DNA of 64,000 nucleotides from Fluviicola sp. (GTDB lineage: Bacteria; Bacteroidota; Bacteroidia; Flavobacteriales_D; Crocinitomicaceae), in the NCBI GenBank assembly GCA_029866325.1, contig JARWZO010000005.1, positions 215,049 to 279,048 on the forward strand, written 5' to 3'. Made by a program: the position numbers and the translations under genes. Numbering within the stretch: position 1 is the stretch's first letter; every line of letters begins with the position of its first letter. Under the pieces are notes generated by a model, which saw only the letters and a list, made by a program, of their open reading frames with translations, did not search any database and was not told the DNA's origin. Below, piece by piece: positions 19,433-31,363 of this stretch.

Positions 19433-22400
19433 ATGATTACACGCGTTCTATTACCGCTTTTCGCTTTTCTCTCGCTGCTTCCGTTCTCAGGTTGGTCGCA
19501 GGTAGTGATTAACGAATACTCTTGTTCAAATATGAACGGTATCACCGATGCTTTCGGTGAGCGAGAAGATTGGATCGAATTATACAATACTTCTGCAACG
19601 GCAGTTGATTTGACGGGTTATTATTTGTCGGACAATGATAATAACCTCACAAAATGGCTTATTCCATCAGGATCAATTCCTGCGAATGGGTATAAAATGG
19701 TTTTCTGTTCCGGTAGAGATTTGGTATCAGGCACACAATATCACCCGAACTTTAGATTGACGCAAACAGAAAACGATTGGATTATTCTTACACTTCCTAA
19801 TGGAAACGTGATGGATTCCATTCAGATCGTGCACATGACGAAAGGTGATCACTCAGTTGGACGTTCTAACAATGCAGCAATTGATTGGAAATTATTTACA
19901 ACTCCTACACCCAATGCGGCCAATACCGGAGCGGTTAATTTTTATACGGACACACCTGTTTTCAGTGTAGCCCCCGGATTTTATGCTGGTGCCCAAAGCG
20001 TAACAATTACTTGTCCGGATGCTTCAGCTACCATTCGCTATACAACAGACGGTTCGGTTCCAACAGCAGCATCAACGCTTTATGCTGGACCTGTAAACAT
20101 CGCAACAACAACCGTTTTACGCGCCCGCGCTTTCTCGGCAAATCTCACAAGTTTTTCTCAATCTGGAACCTACTTTATCAATGTGAATCATACGGTTCCG
20201 GTTGTTTCTGTTGCGGGAGCAGGTAACGGTAGTGTAGCTGATTTACTTAATGGCAACCAAGTTACACCTCAGGGCTTTTTTGAATTGTGGGAAGACGATC
20301 AAACATTAGCCGGAAAAGGTGAAGGTGAGTTCAATAAACACGGAAATGACTCTTGGGCTTATGATCAACGCGGTTTCGACTACATCATGCGTGATGAATT
20401 CGGCTACAACAACGACATCGCTCACCAGATTTTCCCTGAAACTCCAAGAAACAACTTCCAACGCCTCATTTTGAAACCGGGGGCGAGTGATAATTTTCCA
20501 TTTGAAGGTGGTGGTGCGCATATCAGAGACGCATTCATTCACACGCTTTCGCAGAAAGCAGACATGAAATTGGATGAGCGAACATGGAGACCCTGTGTTG
20601 TTTATCTAAACGGTCAGTATTGGGGAGTGTATGAAATTCGTGAAAAAGCAGATGATGCTGATTACACTGATTATTATGCTGATCAAGATAAATACCATCT
20701 GCAATACTTGAAAACGTGGGGTGGAACTTGGGAGGATTATGGTGCGCCAAATGCCTTAAATGACTGGAATGCTTTGAGGACTTATATCAACGCCAACAAC
20801 ATGGGTGTTCAAGCCAATTTTGATTATGTAGATAGTCAACTTAATTGGGAATCGTTGGTGGATTATTTTGTTATCAACTCTTATACTGTGAACCAAGACT
20901 GGTTAAACTGGAACACTTCTTGGTGGCGCGGTACCGATCCGTTGGGTGACAAGAAAAAATGGCGTTATTCTCTTTGGGATATGGATGCCACTTTTGGACA
21001 TTACGTTAATTATACTGGAATTCCAGATAATACTCCAGCAGCCGATCCATGTAATGCCGAAAATTTACCAGATCCGGGTGGCCAAGGACATACTGAGATT
21101 CTATCAAAGTTGATTGCCGAAAATCCGGTAGTGGAACAATATTACATCGCTCGCTATTCCGATTTGGTAAATACATACTTGTCATGTGATTACATGAATT
21201 TCCTGTTGGATAGTATGATCAATGAAATTCAACCGGAAATGGCACAACATGCCACAAGATGGGGTGGTAATTATGCTACCTGGCAAGCGAATGTGCAGGC
21301 ATTGCGCGATTTTATTGATACACGTTGTTTGGAACTTACCCAAGGAATGATCGATTGTTACGAACTGGAAGGGCCGTATAACTTGGTTGTTGATGTTTCC
21401 CCAGCTGGTGCCGGAGAAGTAAAGGTGAATTCTGTTTGGGCTCCTGTTTATCCGTGGGCAGCGACTTATTTTGGAGGAATCAACACCAACTTTATTGCAA
21501 AGGCAAATATCGGCTATGTGTTTGATCACTGGGAATTTACCACGGGACCCATGCTCCAAGCGATAGGTGAAGACACCAACGCCATGTCATTGACCGGTCC
21601 CGAAAATGTGGTAGCCGTATTCATTGCCGACAATCCTGATTTGGATGGTGATGGCATTTTGAATGTGGATGAGGTTGCCAATGGCACCGATCCGAATAAT
21701 CCGGATACGGATGGTGACGGTGAAAACGATGGTGTTGAAACCGGAGCAGATCCTGCTAACCCACTTGATACGGATGGTGACGGCATTATCGATGCATTGG
21801 ATTCTTCTATTGTTGATACAGATGGAGATGGTGTAAACGATGAAACCGATCCGGCAAATACCGATCCTTGTATTCCAAATCCGAATGCCGGTCCTTGTGA
21901 TCAGGATGGTGATGGCTTGACGAATGCAGAAGAAGCAACTGAAGGTACAGATCCTACCAATCCTGATACGGATGGTGATGGAATCAATGACGGAAGTGAG
22001 GTAACTGCTTCAACCGATCCGCTAGACCCATGCGATCCACCAAATGCTACACCTGGTTGTAACATCGATACCGATGGCGATGGACTATTGGATACACAAG
22101 AAACATTGATCGGAACCGATCCGAACAATCCTGATACGGACGGTGACGGAATTGCCGACGGTGTTGAAGTTGCCGGTGGAACAAATCCACTCGACGATTG
22201 CGATCCGAACCCTGTGGGAGACAATTGTTTCAATGGAATCTTCATGCCAACCGGATTCTCTCCGAATGGAGATGGATTGAACGATTACCTAAGCCCTAAA
22301 GTGGGGAATAACGTAGTGAAATTCACATGGTTCTTATACGATCGTTGGGGTAACCGCATGGTGATGTCATCTGACCCAGTCTTTAAATGGGACGGAAACT

Positions 22401-22507
22401 TTAACGGAGTGAAAGTAAACTCCGGAGCTTACGCCTACATGCTAGAGGTAGAATATACAGATGGTAAGAAAGAAACGTTGTCCGGCAACGTTACCGTAAC
22501 AAGATAA
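19433..22507 (+). CDS. CotH-family kinase with lamin-tail and Fn3-like domains, DxDGDG Ca-binding repeats and a T9SS type B (gliding-motility/CHU_C) C-terminal domain
   Basis: VINEYSCSN...DWIELYN (lamin tail), [25 protein letters not shown] and WDMDATFG (CotH), eight DxDGDG motifs, [10 protein letters not shown]...YDRWG...WDG. Confidence 0.85.
21638..22210 (+). repeat. Intragenic thrombospondin type-3-like repeats (8 x DxDGDG)
   Basis: Repeated DTDGDG..D..E...GTDP.NP units in the translation. Confidence 0.8.
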
Positions 22508-22510
22508 GCA

Positions 22511-23548
22511 ATGAAACGCTGGATAATTGGAATAATAGTAGGTCTTGGATCAACCGTGAGTTGGTCTCAGGATCTTCATTTCTCACAGGTTTTGCAATCT
22601 CCCGTATTGCTGAATCCGGGTGCCACCGGAGTTTACAACGGATGGGAGCGCATTACCTTGCACCACCGCAATCAATGGCTGGGTGCTAACACACAATTTA
22701 TGTCGACCGCATTTGCAGCGGAAGCTACCTTTTTGAAGAATCCTCGCAAAAACACCGGTTATTTGGGAATAGGAGTTTCATTCTTTAATGACATGGGTGG
22801 TGACGCAAAATTCGGGAATCAATTGGGAGCACTAACCTTATCAGGTGTACTTCCAATGGGCGGAGCAGGTCAGATTTCATTAGGAATCCAAGGCGGCTTC
22901 GGTAACCGAAAAGGAGACATGTCGCGATTGCTTTATGAAAGTCAATGGAACGGCTCCGGGTTTGATCCTACCATTTATTCCGGTGAAGGCGACGGCTTAA
23001 ATTCATTCAGTTATGCAGATGTTTCTACAGGAATCTTTTATCAATACGATGGCAGTTCATCTACCTTCGCACGTAATAACAACATGAAGTTGCAGGTTGG
23101 TGCGGCTGTTTACCACGCAAATGCTCCACAGATGAACTACAGAGCCGGCGGAACGGAACAATTGGCGCGAAAATATGTCGGTTTGGTCAATTATGCCATG
23201 GATCTTCCGAATACGGAATGGTCATTCGACGTTCAATTTGTACAGTTCATTCAAGGTGGTCACTACGAAACCATTTTCGGAGGGTTAACGCGCAGACGTT
23301 TTCAGGAAGGGACCAAAATTACCGGTTACTCGCAAGATGCATCGTTTGGTTTTGGAGCGTATGTGCGCATGAAAGACGCGATCATTCCAACTGTACAGGT
23401 CGATTATAAAGGTTTTCGCTTCGGGTTATCGTATGATCTGATCATCTCACGTATGCGTAGATCGTATGGTGGAGGAAGCATCGAATTATCTGTTAGTTAT
23501 ACCAATATGGCTCACGCACTTTTCAAAGGGCGTAGAAAAGGGTACTAA
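22511..23548 (+). CDS. PorP/SprF-family T9SS membrane protein
   Basis: QDLHFSQ...LLNPGATG, HRNQW, FRFGLSYD and GGSIELS; 3 nt downstream of a type B CTD cargo. Confidence 0.9.
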   Translation: MKRWIIGIIVGLGSTVSWSQDLHFSQVLQSPVLLNPGATGVYNGWERITLHHRNQWLGANTQFMSTAFAAEATFLKNPRKNTGYLGIGVSFFNDMGGDAKFGNQLGALTLSGVLPMGGAGQISLGIQGGFGNRKGDMSRLLYESQWNGSGFDPTIYSGEGDGLNSFSYADVSTGIFYQYDGSSSTFARNNNMKLQVGAAVYHANAPQMNYRAGGTEQLARKYVGLVNYAMDLPNTEWSFDVQFVQFIQGGHYETIFGGLTRRRFQEGTKITGYSQDASFGFGAYVRMKDAIIPTVQVDYKGFRFGLSYDLIISRMRRSYGGGSIELSVSYTNMAHALFKGRRKGY

Positions 23549-23568
23549 AAACGATAAATTACACGAAG

Positions 23569-23608
23569 GAGTCGTTGTTCAGTTGAAAGACAGAATAACG
23601 GCTTTTTT
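23569..23608 (+). terminator. Rho-independent terminator after the porP-like gene
   Basis: GAGTCGTTGTTC...GAATAACGGCTT stem followed by a T run. Confidence 0.7.
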
Positions 23609-23695
23609 GTTGGTTAACAATTTTGTAATATCCCGAATAAAGGAATATTTTCTAGTTTAACGCAAGAAAAAAAATAAAAAAGCATCTAACAGAAC

Positions 23696-24427
23696 ATGTG
23701 TTGTTTTCTAAGAAAAGGTGCTGCTAAAATCAAGCTGTTAATTTCCGATGGGAAAACCACATCACTATTGATTGGGTTTTTGTCAGCTTTTTCGCTTACC
23801 GCGCAAACCGATTGGAGTGTTTCTTTCAAGCCAATGATCGAACAACAACCGTTGGTACTCAACCAAATTTATGCAGTTAAAAACGATACCTTTCGCATTG
23901 ACGTATTCCGTTTTTATCTTTCAGGGATTTCTTTTTTGAAGCAAGGGGAAACTGTATTTAGTGAATCGAATAGTTATCATCTGATTGATGCCGAAGACAC
24001 TGCAAGTTACCGAATCGCGTTTCATTCACCCAAAAACCTCACGTTTGATGAAATTCAATTCAATGTAGGAATAGACAGCGCTACCAATGTTGCAGGTGTA
24101 ATGGGTGGAGATTTGGACCCGACAAAAGGAATGTATTGGTCGTGGCAAAGTGGTTATATCAACTTTAAACTGGAAGGCTGGAACCCGAAATCAACAGCCC
24201 GGAAACACGAATTTCAATACCATTTAGGTGGTTACATGGTTCCCTATTCGGCGCTTACAACCGTTCGAATTCCTTTTGATAAAGAGCAATCAACGGATAG
24301 TATTACAGTTCAACTGGCTACTTTTCTGGAACAATTAAATACAGCCGAATTGCCCGCAATTATGTCGCCCGGTGAACGCGCGGTGACATTATCTCAAGTC
24401 TTACCAACGATTTTCTCCTCAAAATGA
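23696..24427 (+). CDS. MbnP-family protein
   Basis: FRFYLSGI, IQFNVGID and DLDPTKGMYWSWQSGYINFKLEG with the WxW motif; start codon uncertain. Confidence 0.8.
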   Translation: MCCFLRKGAAKIKLLISDGKTTSLLIGFLSAFSLTAQTDWSVSFKPMIEQQPLVLNQIYAVKNDTFRIDVFRFYLSGISFLKQGETVFSESNSYHLIDAEDTASYRIAFHSPKNLTFDEIQFNVGIDSATNVAGVMGGDLDPTKGMYWSWQSGYINFKLEGWNPKSTARKHEFQYHLGGYMVPYSALTTVRIPFDKEQSTDSITVQLATFLEQLNTAELPAIMSPGERAVTLSQVLPTIFSSK

Positions 24428-25440
24428 TTCATCGGTTCTACCTCATTCTCTTACTGATCTTTGTCGGTTTTGCTATGATGAAACCCGATAAAAATCCGGT
24501 GATTCATGTGCCGAAGGGGTGGCCGAAACCGACGTATGATTTTAAAAAAAATCCGCTTAACGAAGCGACCATCGAGTTGGGTAGACAACTGTTTTATGAT
24601 CCGGTTTTATCGCGAAACGATCAGGTTTCGTGTGCCAGTTGTCACCTGCAACAAACAGCATTTACACACATTGATCACGCGTTGAGTCATGGGATAGACG
24701 ACCGCATCGGAAACCGTAATTCGCCGGCATTGGTCAACCTGGCCTGGGGCAAGATTTTCATGTGGGACGGAGCGGTAAATCACTTGGATGTGCAAGCTCT
24801 TGCCCCAATCGAAAATCACCTTGAAATGGATGAGAAAATAGCGAATGTGGTGCTAAAACTGCAAGCGTCTAAAACGTATAGAGGGCGTTTTTTCAACGCT
24901 TTCGGCGACAGTACGGTTACAGGTGAGCGAACCTTGAAATCCATTTCACAATTCCTACTCACTTTGGTAAGCACCAATTCCAAATACGATCAGGTAATGC
25001 GAAAAGAAAAAGGTATTCAATTCAGCGAATCAGAGCAAAAAGGATACGTCTTGTTCAAAAAGCATTGCGCTGCTTGCCATACGGAGCCTTTGTTTACGAA
25101 TGGTTTGTTTGAAAACAATGGCCTTAAACCTGATTCTACACTGAACGACATTGGTAGAATGGGCGTCACACACCGTAGTTCCGATTCACTCAAATTTAAA
25201 GTACCCACACTTCGGAATATTGAACGATCACCTCCTTATATGCACGATGGCCGATTCAGGAACCTGCAAATGGTACTATTTCATTATAGCAACGGAATTC
25301 ATGCATCTCCCACGCTTTCTCCACAACTCAAGAATACAATTGCGTTGAACGAACAGGAAAAAGGGTGTGTGATTGCATTTTTAAAAACACTTACGGATAC
25401 CGAATTTTTAATGAATCCGAAGTACGGTTACCCCAAATGA
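24424..25440 (+). CDS. Di-heme MbnH/MauG-type cytochrome c peroxidase-family protein
   Basis: Two CxxCH motifs (CASCH, CAACH), LGRQLFYDP, FMWDG and FKVPTLRNI...PYMHDG; overlaps the mbnP-like gene by 4 nt. Confidence 0.88.
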   Translation: MIHRFYLILLLIFVGFAMMKPDKNPVIHVPKGWPKPTYDFKKNPLNEATIELGRQLFYDPVLSRNDQVSCASCHLQQTAFTHIDHALSHGIDDRIGNRNSPALVNLAWGKIFMWDGAVNHLDVQALAPIENHLEMDEKIANVVLKLQASKTYRGRFFNAFGDSTVTGERTLKSISQFLLTLVSTNSKYDQVMRKEKGIQFSESEQKGYVLFKKHCAACHTEPLFTNGLFENNGLKPDSTLNDIGRMGVTHRSSDSLKFKVPTLRNIERSPPYMHDGRFRNLQMVLFHYSNGIHASPTLSPQLKNTIALNEQEKGCVIAFLKTLTDTEFLMNPKYGYPK

Positions 25441-25472
25441 GGGAAGTAAATAACGATAAATAATAGAAGAGT

Positions 25473-26771
25473 ATGAAAAAGCTATGTTTGATGTTAGCAG
25501 GGTTTAGTGGCTTCGTAGCGTATGCCCAACCCGAGATTGAAAATTGGTTGATGAATCAAGGAGAGTATGCCAGTTATTGGGAAAACACCGGGGGCATGGG
25601 TAATCCCGACAATTTTGTGTTTAGCACGAGCACCGTACTTGCCAATGTTACCCGAGTGTGTTACAACAGCACGTATGTTTGGGTAGAATCGGATGGAATG
25701 ACTACTAGTATGGGACAATTCTTGAACCCGGGAGCACCGTCAGCACAAGATTACACTTATCGTTTTCCGCGAACACCAACTGTTCCGGCAACCAAGACAG
25801 GTGCTCCTTATGAAGGCTCCATTGGTTTGCTGAACAACGGAGTTCCTGTATATGGATTGTCAAATGCCCATTATTACAATGGTTCGGGCAACAATGGAAA
25901 TGGAACCGGAACATGGAATGTAGAAGTTTATTTGGCAGAAGGTTTCGTGCTTGATTCTACGCTGGGTGCTCATCCGCAGCAACAAGGCGCTTATCACAGT
26001 CATGCCAAACCGTATCGATTGTATGCTACAACACCGAGTAATGAACATTCACCGATTGTTGGCTATGCCTTCGATGGTTACCCGATTTACGGACCTTACG
26101 GATATACAACGGCGATGAACGCATCAAGCGGAATTTCACGTATGAAAACCGGATTTTCATTGCGCAATATCACCACGCGTACCACTTTACCTGATGGAAG
26201 TAGTTTGAGTGCCGCAGATTACGGTCCGGCAGTTAGCTCTACGTATCCTTTGGGAACCTATATCGAAGACTACCAATGGTCGGCTGGCAACGGTGGCGAT
26301 TTGGATGAATACAACGGTCGTTTTTGTGTAACACCCGAATACCCGAGCGGAACGTATGCTTATTTCGTAACGATTGATGCCAACGGAACACCGGAATTTC
26401 CGTATTACATCGGAACGGAATATTACGGAGCGCCAGAGGTAGACGATATCACGATGGGAGCGACAATTACTGTTCCTTCTTCTGGTGTGACTTGTTTCAC
26501 AGATCCGTTATCAGTGAATGAAGCTGCACAAAAAGAAACCATTTTAGTAGCTCCAAATCCATCGAATGGTGTATTTAACCTTCAATTACCGGATATATCA
26601 GGAAGCACAACGGTTGAAATTTACAATACAGCTGGTCAGCAAATCTTTACACAAACCATCACAACAAATGAATTACTCATCGATCTTTCTGCTCAAAATA
26701 GTTCAGGAGTATTGTTGCTGAAAGTTACCAATAACGGTCAATCCTATTATTCGAAAATCGCTTTGAAGTAA
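25473..26771 (+). CDS. YHYH-domain protein with a T9SS type A sorting domain
   Basis: IGLLNNGVPVY, GAHP...GAYHSHA, HSPIVGYAFDGYPIYGPYG, DLDEYNGRFCVTPEYP.G.YAYF; CTD VAPNPSNG...IYNTAGQ...KIALK. Confidence 0.85.
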   Translation: MKKLCLMLAGFSGFVAYAQPEIENWLMNQGEYASYWENTGGMGNPDNFVFSTSTVLANVTRVCYNSTYVWVESDGMTTSMGQFLNPGAPSAQDYTYRFPRTPTVPATKTGAPYEGSIGLLNNGVPVYGLSNAHYYNGSGNNGNGTGTWNVEVYLAEGFVLDSTLGAHPQQQGAYHSHAKPYRLYATTPSNEHSPIVGYAFDGYPIYGPYGYTTAMNASSGISRMKTGFSLRNITTRTTLPDGSSLSAADYGPAVSSTYPLGTYIEDYQWSAGNGGDLDEYNGRFCVTPEYPSGTYAYFVTIDANGTPEFPYYIGTEYYGAPEVDDITMGATITVPSSGVTCFTDPLSVNEAAQKETILVAPNPSNGVFNLQLPDISGSTTVEIYNTAGQQIFTQTITTNELLIDLSAQNSSGVLLLKVTNNGQSYYSKIALK

Positions 26772-26790
26772 AGTAGGTTTATAGACGAGG

Positions 26791-26828
26791 AACCCGGTAG
26801 CTGTTTTGGTTATCGGGTTTTCTTTTTT
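26791..26828 (+). terminator. Rho-independent terminator after the YHYH gene
   Basis: AACCCGGTAGC-loop-GTTATCGGGTT followed by a T-rich tail. Confidence 0.75.
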
Positions 26829-26913
26829 CGGGCAGACTATTCTTAAAGTTGACTTCAAACTAAAACGATTTACATTCTTTTAAACACCGTTCGTTTTTCC
26901 CGATTAAAGACAC

Positions 26914-30142: not shown

Positions 30143-31363
30143 ATGAAAACCAACTTATTACTTCTCGTAACGCTGTTGATTTCTGTTTCTGTCAAAGCAC
30201 AGTTGAATGGATATCTCAGTTACCTCCACAATCCCGGTTGTGATAATCAAAGTGGTGCAGTGGCTGTACAAGCCGTTGGCGGAGTAGGCAATTACACCTA
30301 TTTATGGTCAAATGGTTCCACAAACGATACGGTTTACAATCTTGGCGCCGGAGTTTATTCCGTAACGGTTTACAGCGGAAGTGATTCAATTATACAAACC
30401 ATTACCCTTGATCCGTTTGGCATTGAAAATGTAGCGGTTCAACATGACTGCAACGGCGATGGTGGCAGTATTTTTCTTGACAATATAGTAGCATCATATC
30501 CCTTGCAATTCCATTGGTATCAAAATCAAGTATTGATGAACGAAACGGGGTTTTTCGTAAACAATCTAACGGCTGATAACTACCAATATGCCGTAATAGA
30601 TGCCGAAGGATGTATCGATTCCGGAACGGTAGTAATCAGTGCGTCTTCTCCTCACATGGACGTCTTCCTTTCCGATTCCACACTTTGTTGGGGTCAGAGT
30701 TCTCAGGTTTGGTTTACGCCCGGTTTCACCCTCATCGATGGCAGTGGAAATTACTTTAATTCAACGATTGATACGTTTACGTACGTCGATCAAATGGGAT
30801 CGAGTGGCATTCCGCAAGATGGGATGGATTCACTGGGTTGTTTGACAAATCACATTGATCAATTCCCTTTTATTTACTTGCAGCCACATCCTGATGCAAT
30901 GACGATTTACACCTTTCAAGACACCCTTTCACTAACGTTTGGGCCTGTTTTGTCGCCAGATCCATTGAACACATATAGTTGGTATAAAGATGGGGCCTTG
31001 CTTACTGAAAATGCGTTTTCATATTTAGTAGTGAACACAGGCGGGTTGTATTCAGTGATCAGAACAAATCAATTCGGTTGTTCCAACTATGGGGTAACTC
31101 AGGTTACGTTTGCCGATATTGATCTACCGGAAATAGAAGAAATCAGTATTTACCCAAATCCTGCTGTTGGCGGTGAAATATGGCAAATTGAGATCGCGGA
31201 TTTTAACAGAATACTGAGCTATTCACTATTCGACAGCAATGGTCGTGAACTAACATCCGGTGAGTTATCGGCCTCTGTAAGCACAATTTCAGCTCCGGAT
31301 AAAGCAGGCATATATTTCCTTGAAATCGAAAACCGACGGTTTAAACTCATAAGTGTCCGTTAG
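30143..31363 (+). CDS. T9SS type A cargo with SprB-like repeats
   Basis: Signal peptide; GGVGNYTYLWSNG...NLGAGVYSVTV (SprB repeat); CTD IYPNPA...LFDSNGRE...GIYFLEI. Confidence 0.75.
   Translation: MKTNLLLLVTLLISVSVKAQLNGYLSYLHNPGCDNQSGAVAVQAVGGVGNYTYLWSNGSTNDTVYNLGAGVYSVTVYSGSDSIIQTITLDPFGIENVAVQHDCNGDGGSIFLDNIVASYPLQFHWYQNQVLMNETGFFVNNLTADNYQYAVIDAEGCIDSGTVVISASSPHMDVFLSDSTLCWGQSSQVWFTPGFTLIDGSGNYFNSTIDTFTYVDQMGSSGIPQDGMDSLGCLTNHIDQFPFIYLQPHPDAMTIYTFQDTLSLTFGPVLSPDPLNTYSWYKDGALLTENAFSYLVVNTGGLYSVIRTNQFGCSNYGVTQVTFADIDLPEIEEISIYPNPAVGGEIWQIEIADFNRILSYSLFDSNGRELTSGELSASVSTISAPDKAGIYFLEIENRRFKLISVR

Follow-up and report, generated by a model that had tools for sequence, protein, structure and literature searches.

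A predicted MauG-type di-haem enzyme, an MbnP-family protein and a secreted YHYH-domain protein in a candidate copper-handling operon of Fluviicola

What do the proteins MbnP and MbnH do outside methanobactin operons? According to a 2025 review, the role of such pairs is still open (PMC11951088). The question arises at a locus of Fluviicola sp. (GenBank assembly GCA_029866325.1) that lies in a 64,000-nucleotide stretch of contig JARWZO010000005.1 (positions 215,049 to 279,048, forward strand); we refer to this whole stretch as the window. Positions 23696-26771 of the window hold three same-strand open reading frames (ORFs), coding for an MbnP-like protein, an MbnH-like di-haem protein, and a YHYH-domain protein that ends in a C-terminal sorting domain (CTD) of the type IX secretion system (T9SS). 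An initial annotation, made from the letters of the DNA, had described them as one three-gene unit, and the ORF coordinates bear this out:

23696-24427, + strand: mbnP-like gene, 243 aa
24424-25440, + strand: mbnH-like gene for a MauG-type di-haem protein, 338 aa
25473-26771, + strand: gene for a YHYH domain with a T9SS CTD, 432 aa

The first two genes share a 4-nt overlap (ATGA), through which the mbnH-like gene is predicted to be translationally coupled to the mbnP-like gene. As had been proposed, the unit stands outside a methanobactin system: MbnB is absent genome-wide (top match 47 bits against a cut-off of 325; MbnC was not searched for), and no TonB-dependent transporter gene adjoins the unit among the window ORFs. 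The window operon is a trimmed form of a cassette that is conserved in Bacteroidota. Below we discuss the three proteins, the persistence of their linkage, the control of the operon, and the function that these observations suggest.

The MbnP-like protein matches Pfam family PF20243 at 154.6 bits (cut-off 27). It has a Sec signal peptide ending in SLTAQ, as judged by eye, and its mature chain contains zero Cys. Its motif residues are M146-x-W148-x-W150, H176 and M223; the YWSW noted in the initial annotation is kept at residues 147-150. Neither M146-x-W148-x-W150 nor H176 varies among 36 homologues or among the five paralogues of the genome. In MbnP the copper site consists of kynurenine, formed from a Trp of the WxW motif, together with His and Met ligands (PMC11951088). 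In a profile built from the five divergent paralogues, GMxWxW and YHxGG align with GMAWNW and VHVG of 7L6G, the MbnP of Methylosinus trichosporium OB3b, in what is a marginal match (E 0.093), and a profile of the 36 Bacteroidota homologues gave no match to PDB sequences. The relation to 7L6G was settled by comparison of folds. The AlphaFold2 (AF2) model has a mean predicted local distance difference test score (pLDDT) of 84, and its Foldseek matches in the PDB at E <= 0.001 are six chains of 7L6G only (E 6e-8 to 9e-7, template modelling score (TM) 0.51-0.58). The Pfam score and the modelled fold agree with the MbnP-like identity given to the protein earlier, and they place it within PF20243 and the MbnP fold but do not make it an equivalog of the methanotroph MbnP.

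Two further MbnP paralogues of the genome have unusual C-terminal ends. One, at contig C4:21793-23859, is a 317-aa protein with a T9SS sorting domain of its own; its gene lies beside a di-haem gene, and a second di-haem gene is close by. The other, at contig C2:92341-93384 (347 aa), has a C-terminal extension of ~100 aa without a match, and no di-haem gene lies next to it. The organism may export MbnP-like proteins, too.

The product of the second gene matches Pfam CCP_MauG (PF03150) at 172 bits and has two haem motifs, CASCH at 70 and CAACH at 215. MauG-type and canonical enzymes are separated by the ligands of the electron-transfer haem, which are His/Tyr in the former and His/Met in the latter (PMC11892367). 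By whole-length score the protein is about equally close to canonical peroxidases and to MbnH (in the PDB ranking, the Nitrosomonas peroxidase 1iqc at 2.8e-39 stands slightly ahead of MbnH 6e1c at 1.8e-35), and the ligand column was therefore tested directly. The sequence PYMH occupies residues 271-274, and Tyr288 lies 14 residues past His274. The initial annotation had given this spacing as that of the axial Tyr of MauG. The alignment confirms it, since Tyr288 falls in the column of MauG Tyr294 and of the Tyr in 'DIYSEG' of MbnH, to which a full-length alignment (6e1c) was obtained. A chain of 3orv, which we take to be the Y294H variant of MauG, has His (ILFHN) in the same column. All five di-haem paralogues of the genome read HY at the ligand column. 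The inter-haem Trp is likewise in place, Trp114 in FMWDG aligning with FWDG of peroxidases.

When the C-terminal 83 residues serve as the query, the ranking becomes MbnH 6e1c (2.3e-10), MauG (3e-6) and then the Nitrosomonas peroxidase (2e-5). A maximum-likelihood tree, which has long branches and does not include MauG itself, puts the Met-ligated enzymes 1iqc, 3o5c and 4aal in a clade of their own (support 100/99). The window protein stands apart from them, in a clade with MbnH 6e1c, all five genome paralogues and the MbnP-MbnH fusions described below (93/87). These comparisons identify the second gene product as a predicted Tyr-ligated enzyme of the MauG/MbnH type, not a Met-ligated peroxidase, with Tyr288 as the putative distal ligand of the electron-transfer haem.

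The third protein has a signal peptide and matches Pfam PF14240 (YHYH) at 154.6 bits against a cut-off of 25. Its C-terminal part matches Por_Secre_tail (PF18962, 37.6 bits) and the T9SS type-A domain TIGR04183 (42.4 bits, cut-off 23). The motif reads Y174-H175-S176-H177, that is YHSH, and the earlier assignment to the YHYH family with a T9SS CTD is correct. YHYH domains occur widely in both bacteria and phages; the family is uncharacterised and, to our knowledge, without a solved fold. The AF2 model has a pLDDT of 72.8. In a Foldseek search only its C-terminal domain matches the PDB, to the CTD of NucA in a T9SS complex (8glk_D, TMt 0.75), and the YHYH domain itself finds no fold match there. 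An alignment of 144 YHYH sequences shows a core of residues that are at least 90% conserved: the four His H167, H175, H177 and H192, the acidic residues D161, D201, E156, E265, D266 and D278, the four Arg R223, R231, R236 and R283, and several Trp and Tyr. This invariant core of four His, four Arg and several Asp and Glu looks like an active site. Residues 187-345 match large families of phage baseplate and virion proteins (E 1e-48 to 1e-27). Two studies independently predicted a three-His metal site in YHYH proteins (PMC7824862; bioRxiv 10.64898/2026.10.18.759936) and proposed a hydrolase role with a predicted Zn site for the domain in phage tails (PMC7824862).

Does the YHYH gene belong with the MbnP/MbnH pair? 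A survey of co-occurrence, as had been recommended with the initial annotation, indicates that it does, and that the linkage is kept across families and phyla. We collected 65 YHYH loci from 151 genomes of the same order and searched them with hidden Markov models (HMMs) built from the paralogues of the source genome, which has five MbnP and four YHYH genes. At 33 of these loci MbnH, with MbnP, is the immediate same-strand neighbour of YHYH. In its full form the cassette comprises an extracytoplasmic function (ECF) sigma factor, a small single-pass membrane protein, a CpxP-like protein, MbnP, MbnH and YHYH. Seven further loci have the ECF, CpxP-like and YHYH genes without the MbnP/MbnH pair (MbnPH). 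By genome, MbnP is found in 144 and YHYH in 62 of the 151. The source genome has a second paralogous locus:

contig C11:108634-113405: YHYH-CTD, ASST-like beta-propeller-CTD, MbnP and MbnH genes, in this order

Genes of the ASST-like (arylsulfotransferase-family) type also adjoin YHYH in L040, L119, L125, L134 and L144, and the ASST-like protein may be a fourth recurrent partner of the cassette. A complete ECF-MbnP-MbnH-YHYH cassette is present in L078, a record titled Chryseobacterium hispalense DSM 25574. Its YHYH protein is 71% identical to the Fluviicola-type one of the window, which is unusually close for a different family; either horizontal transfer or a wrong label on the contig may be the cause.

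A scan across bacteria, with one genome per species, yielded 79 loci, the closest relatives being Fluviicola. A di-haem gene lies beside YHYH in ~33 of the 79. At several loci in distant phyla the pair has been joined into a single protein, with MbnP at the N-terminus and the di-haem domain at the C-terminus, encoded beside YHYH. Both domains were confirmed by Pfam (MbnP and CCP_MauG) in three of these fusions, of 588-631 aa:

L111:8100-9995: fusion protein, Phycisphaeraceae
L153:8512-10278: fusion protein, Verrucomicrobiota metagenome-assembled genome (MAG)
L140:8729-10573: fusion protein, Verrucomicrobiota MAG

The same fusion was recognised in L139 by inspection of the sequence, and in L136, L137 and L149 by size and HMM score only. 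At four other loci, in MAGs of Planctomycetota and Deltaproteobacteria, MbnP is absent and a YtkA/CtaK-like gene (PF13115, HGHGM...FHM) takes its place beside a Tyr-type di-haem gene and YHYH:

L117:8263-8607: YtkA/CtaK-like gene
L118:8290-8646: YtkA/CtaK-like gene
L127:5146-5631: YtkA/CtaK-like gene
L107:4802-5473: YtkA/CtaK-like gene

The di-haem enzymes of these four loci form a separate Tyr-bearing lineage. In Bacillus subtilis the extracytoplasmic YtkA/CtaK domain is implicated in supplying the CuA site with copper (PMC13344008), and its presence in the position of MbnP therefore provides independent support for a link to copper. The constant core of the cassette is the di-haem enzyme and YHYH, and the variable third partner is a copper-binding beta-sandwich drawn from two unrelated families. 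Since the core stays constant while the third partner varies, YHYH, not MbnP, is suggested to be the functional endpoint.

The genes around the cassette were also compared. Clustering of the flanks of 64 linked loci revealed no recurrent outer-membrane transporter, ATPase, TonB-dependent or other uptake gene. The genes that do recur are regulators only. In Bacteroidota these are ECF modules; Verrucomicrobiota, and some Bacteroidota as well, have a histidine kinase together with a response regulator of the NtrC type.

How is the window operon controlled, given that the window lacks a sigma module? A promoter of the ECF type precedes the first gene:

23661-23689, + strand: ECF-type promoter CGCAAG-N16-CATCTAA, its -10 element ending 6 nt before the mbnP ATG

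The motif has one match in the window and none in 100 shuffles. The 4.68-Mb genome contains 2 matches on both strands together, against 0.3-0.4 expected. The second match lies upstream of an ECF sigma gene on contig C21, at the head of a cassette that includes a second YHYH gene:

C21:193745-196537: C21 cassette, including its promoter
C21:193793-194371: ECF sigma gene
C21:194384-194665: gene for the likely anti-sigma, a single-pass membrane protein of 93 aa
C21:194662-195144: CpxP/ZraP-like gene
C21:195194-196537: second YHYH gene (YHYH-CTD)

The spacers of the two promoters are wholly different (T-rich in one, A-rich in the other), and the -35 and -10 elements alone are shared. A genome of the same genus (G080, L071) keeps both sites. 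The promoter is absent at the C11 locus and at the other MbnP loci of the source genome. A looser candidate, GCAAG-N16-CATCTAA at C26:54375-54402 (minus strand), ~230 nt upstream of a methyltransferase-like ORF, was set aside; it apparently falls within a coding region and is probably due to chance. As to the CpxP-like protein, six of 15 homologues match PF13801 (Metal_resist, best E 8e-11) and five match LTXXQ; the C21 copy itself matches PF13801 under the cut-off.

Across the cassettes the promoter class follows the sigma factor. Of 53 loci, 9 have the element C[AG]TCTAA no more than 100 nt ahead of the first cassette gene, where 0.46 would be expected. In one ECF clade, to which the C21 sigma belongs, GCAAG...CATC lies upstream of all six members, and a Fluviicola ECF clade (L014, L076, L077 and L089) goes with TAAAC...TCTTAA. 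In the di-haem tree, the window MbnH is orthologous to the MbnH of trios that stand behind an ECF of the TAAAC...TCTTAA class. The source genome has no ECF of that class, and no cassette-type ECF other than that of C21. Because an MbnH ortholog of the second class thus carries a promoter of the first class, and the second-class ECF is absent, we read the window trio as a split cassette that was rewired to the remaining sigma of C21.

What, then, might the module do? The analysis shows what the genes are, that their linkage is conserved and that the two promoters match; the chemistry and the metal are inferred. The explanation we favour, and to which we give about an even chance, is that of a sigma-controlled periplasmic module in which a MauG-type enzyme and a copper-binding partner prepare the YHYH protein, by metallation, oxidative maturation or both, before its export by the T9SS. 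MbnP and MbnH would both be periplasmic. MbnH would use peroxide to oxidise a Trp of the MxWxW motif of MbnP to kynurenine and thereby make a copper site, by analogy with Methylosinus trichosporium. YHYH would fold in the periplasm ahead of T9SS export and would be the endpoint of the module, receiving copper from MbnP, being matured oxidatively by MbnH, or both. It would then be exported to the cell surface or the medium and act there as a metal-dependent enzyme or a binding protein on an extracellular polymer. Transcription of the window operon would depend on the C21 ECF sigma, so that both YHYH paralogues, in the window and on C21, would answer one envelope or metal signal. The initial annotation had considered YHYH as a second substrate for oxidative modification, and this idea is somewhat favoured because di-haem and YHYH pairs without MbnP exist.

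A bolder extension, which we put forward tentatively and consider rather unlikely, sees in YHYH a new class of exported copper enzyme. Its four-His centre, possibly with a cofactor derived from Trp or Tyr, would be built in the periplasm by a dedicated MauG-type haem enzyme and its copper-chaperone partner, be it MbnP, fused MbnP or a YtkA-like protein, and YHYH would act oxidatively on extracellular or cell-surface polymers. If true, this would also account for the YHYH domain in phage baseplates, and the MbnP/MbnH pair of non-methanotrophs would be a machine for the maturation of secreted enzymes, not a device for copper uptake.

Several observations weigh against the proposed periplasmic preparation of YHYH. 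The best NCBIfam match of the di-haem protein is MbnH itself (TIGR04039), at 205 bits under a cut-off of 362.85. The MbnP-like protein scores 37.9 bits against a cut-off of 140 for the equivalog TIGR04052 ('four-Cys motif protein'), and the four Cys are missing. Only two partner families point to copper as the metal. At the His cluster the YHYH model is weak (pLDDT 45-61). About half of the YHYH genes have no di-haem neighbour. In a search for hints of a modification site, no alignment column splits the 71 linked from the 73 di-haem-unlinked YHYH sequences; if YHYH depends on MbnPH, these would thus have to act in trans, or the dependence be a dispensable one. As to the sigma control, the strict promoter motif was defined after both sites had been seen, and a -10 element only 6 nt from the ATG would require a leaderless or near-leaderless mRNA.

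Other explanations have to be weighed against the same evidence. One would see in the operon an ordinary cytochrome c peroxidase that detoxifies peroxide, with two unrelated neighbours, a reading that fits the slight lead of 1iqc in the whole-length PDB ranking. It conflicts with the presence of Tyr288 in the Met-ligand column, in register with MauG Tyr294, with the order of MbnH, MauG and 1iqc in the C-terminal region, with the separate clade of Met-ligated enzymes, and with the coupling of the gene to one of MbnP fold, to which it is fused elsewhere. On the Tyr ligand and the tree we reject it as highly improbable. A different view, voiced in the initial annotation, gives the exported YHYH the place of a chalkophore or receptor: it would capture copper or another metal outside the cell and feed the periplasmic MbnP. 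YHYH is indeed secreted through its T9SS CTD and has four invariant His, and neither a methanobactin gene (MbnB searched) nor an adjoining TonB-dependent transporter is present. However, no uptake component recurs in the flanks of the 64 linked loci, and a way for the metal back into the cell is therefore not evident. Besides its His, the invariant core has four Arg and several Asp and Glu, as in an active site. Baseplate and virion proteins of phages, which are no metal scavengers, contain close relatives of the domain (PMC7824862), and YHYH is present in phyla that lack a T9SS, often without MbnP. The scavenger role finds no support in the survey, and we regard it as improbable.

More serious is the view that the three proteins have separate functions and merely share a sigma regulon, MbnP and MbnH serving against periplasmic copper or peroxide stress, and YHYH being a zinc-type hydrolase or a binding protein for cell-surface or extracellular polymers. 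The YHYH genes without a di-haem neighbour would be expected from it, as would the conserved core, which is the same in linked and unlinked proteins. The seven loci with ECF, CpxP-like and YHYH genes but no MbnPH, the YHYH domains of phage baseplates with their predicted Zn-site hydrolase (PMC7824862), and the commonness of MbnP/MbnH pairs without YHYH, evident from the genome counts, point in the same direction. Yet the adjacency survives where the gene order has changed, where MbnP and MbnH are fused, and where, in distant phyla, an unrelated copper-chaperone domain stands in for MbnP, and persistence of this kind is not expected from shared regulation alone. We consider separate functions unlikely, and retain periplasmic preparation of YHYH by the di-haem enzyme and its copper-binding partner as the favoured explanation.

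The limits of the operon and its surroundings complete the description of the locus. Two hairpins delimit the unit:

23563-23608, + strand: hairpin (fold -24.8 kcal/mol, z -3.6) followed by TTTTTT
26789-26831, + strand: intrinsic terminator with a 15-bp stem and a T-run (scan hit at 26789-26821, followed by the T-run), which closes the operon

Of the terminators that the initial annotation had placed at both ends, the downstream one was recovered by the terminator scan. The upstream one was not called by the consensus terminator scan of the window, yet its strong hairpin and T-run make it plausible; it is the probable intrinsic terminator of an upstream porP/sprF-like gene, which ends at 23548, and would mark the 5' boundary of the unit. 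That gene is the PorP/SprF partner of a CotH/CHU_C cargo gene, and the two make up the 5' flank; purH and mreB follow on the 3' side. The CotH-kinase-family protein has 1024 aa, with a lamin-tail domain, TSP3 repeats and a type-B T9SS signal (CHU_C), and together with the PorP/SprF-family gene behind it spans 19433-23548 of the window. The two represent a cargo with a dedicated outer-membrane partner and are separate from the operon described here. At 30143-31363 the window codes for another protein with a T9SS sorting domain (406 aa, SprB repeat); T9SS cargo is abundant in the window.

The MbnPH literature that was searched describes neither the conserved third gene, nor the swap of partners, nor a control by ECF sigma factors. 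A linkage that survives both fusion and partner replacement across phyla offers one testable hypothesis for the role of MbnPH and for the function of YHYH, and it ties the orphan YHYH family to copper handling in a way that can be tested. In addition, nature has set up an experiment in the source genome, where the trio lies apart from the sigma module and the promoter elements are kept, which permits a clean test of the regulon and its inducing signal.

The locus can be compared with several known systems. MauG of Paracoccus denitrificans, which acts on pre-methylamine dehydrogenase, is likewise a Tyr-ligated di-haem enzyme, and it oxidises Trp of a separate folded periplasmic protein, much as is envisaged here. 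There is no methylamine dehydrogenase client at the window, however, and no tryptophan tryptophylquinone is expected; in sequence the window enzyme is less similar to MauG than to MbnH. Chaperones of the YtkA/CtaK and PCuAC types, such as CtaK and the C-terminal domain of YcnJ in B. subtilis (PMC13344008), provide the precedent of a small copper-binding beta-sandwich that passes its metal on to an extracytoplasmic client. The window has MbnP instead, and CtaK is known to serve the CuA centre of cytochrome oxidase rather than a secreted protein, with no haem enzyme involved. Stress modules in which an ECF sigma and an anti-sigma accompany a CnrX-, ZraP- or CpxP-type protein resemble the C21 cassette, with its ECF sigma, 93-aa membrane protein and membrane-anchored protein of the Metal_resist/LTXXQ family. 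The C21 promoter is apparently autoregulatory and is shared with the window operon, whose genes are novel as targets of such a module.

The closest relative is the MbnP/MbnH pair of Methylosinus trichosporium OB3b (7L6G and 6E1C), known as the 'metallo-mystery pair' (TIGR04052/TIGR04039). The window shares with it the adjacent co-directional genes, the MbnP fold and a predicted Tyr-ligated di-haem enzyme that groups with 6E1C, and MxWxW and the following His align with 7L6G, if by a marginal profile. In contrast to OB3b, the window has no MbnB (MbnC was not searched for), no nearby transporter of the MbnT type and no four Cys, and both of its proteins score well under the NCBIfam cut-offs. To the pair it adds a conserved third gene, YHYH, and predicted control by an ECF sigma factor.

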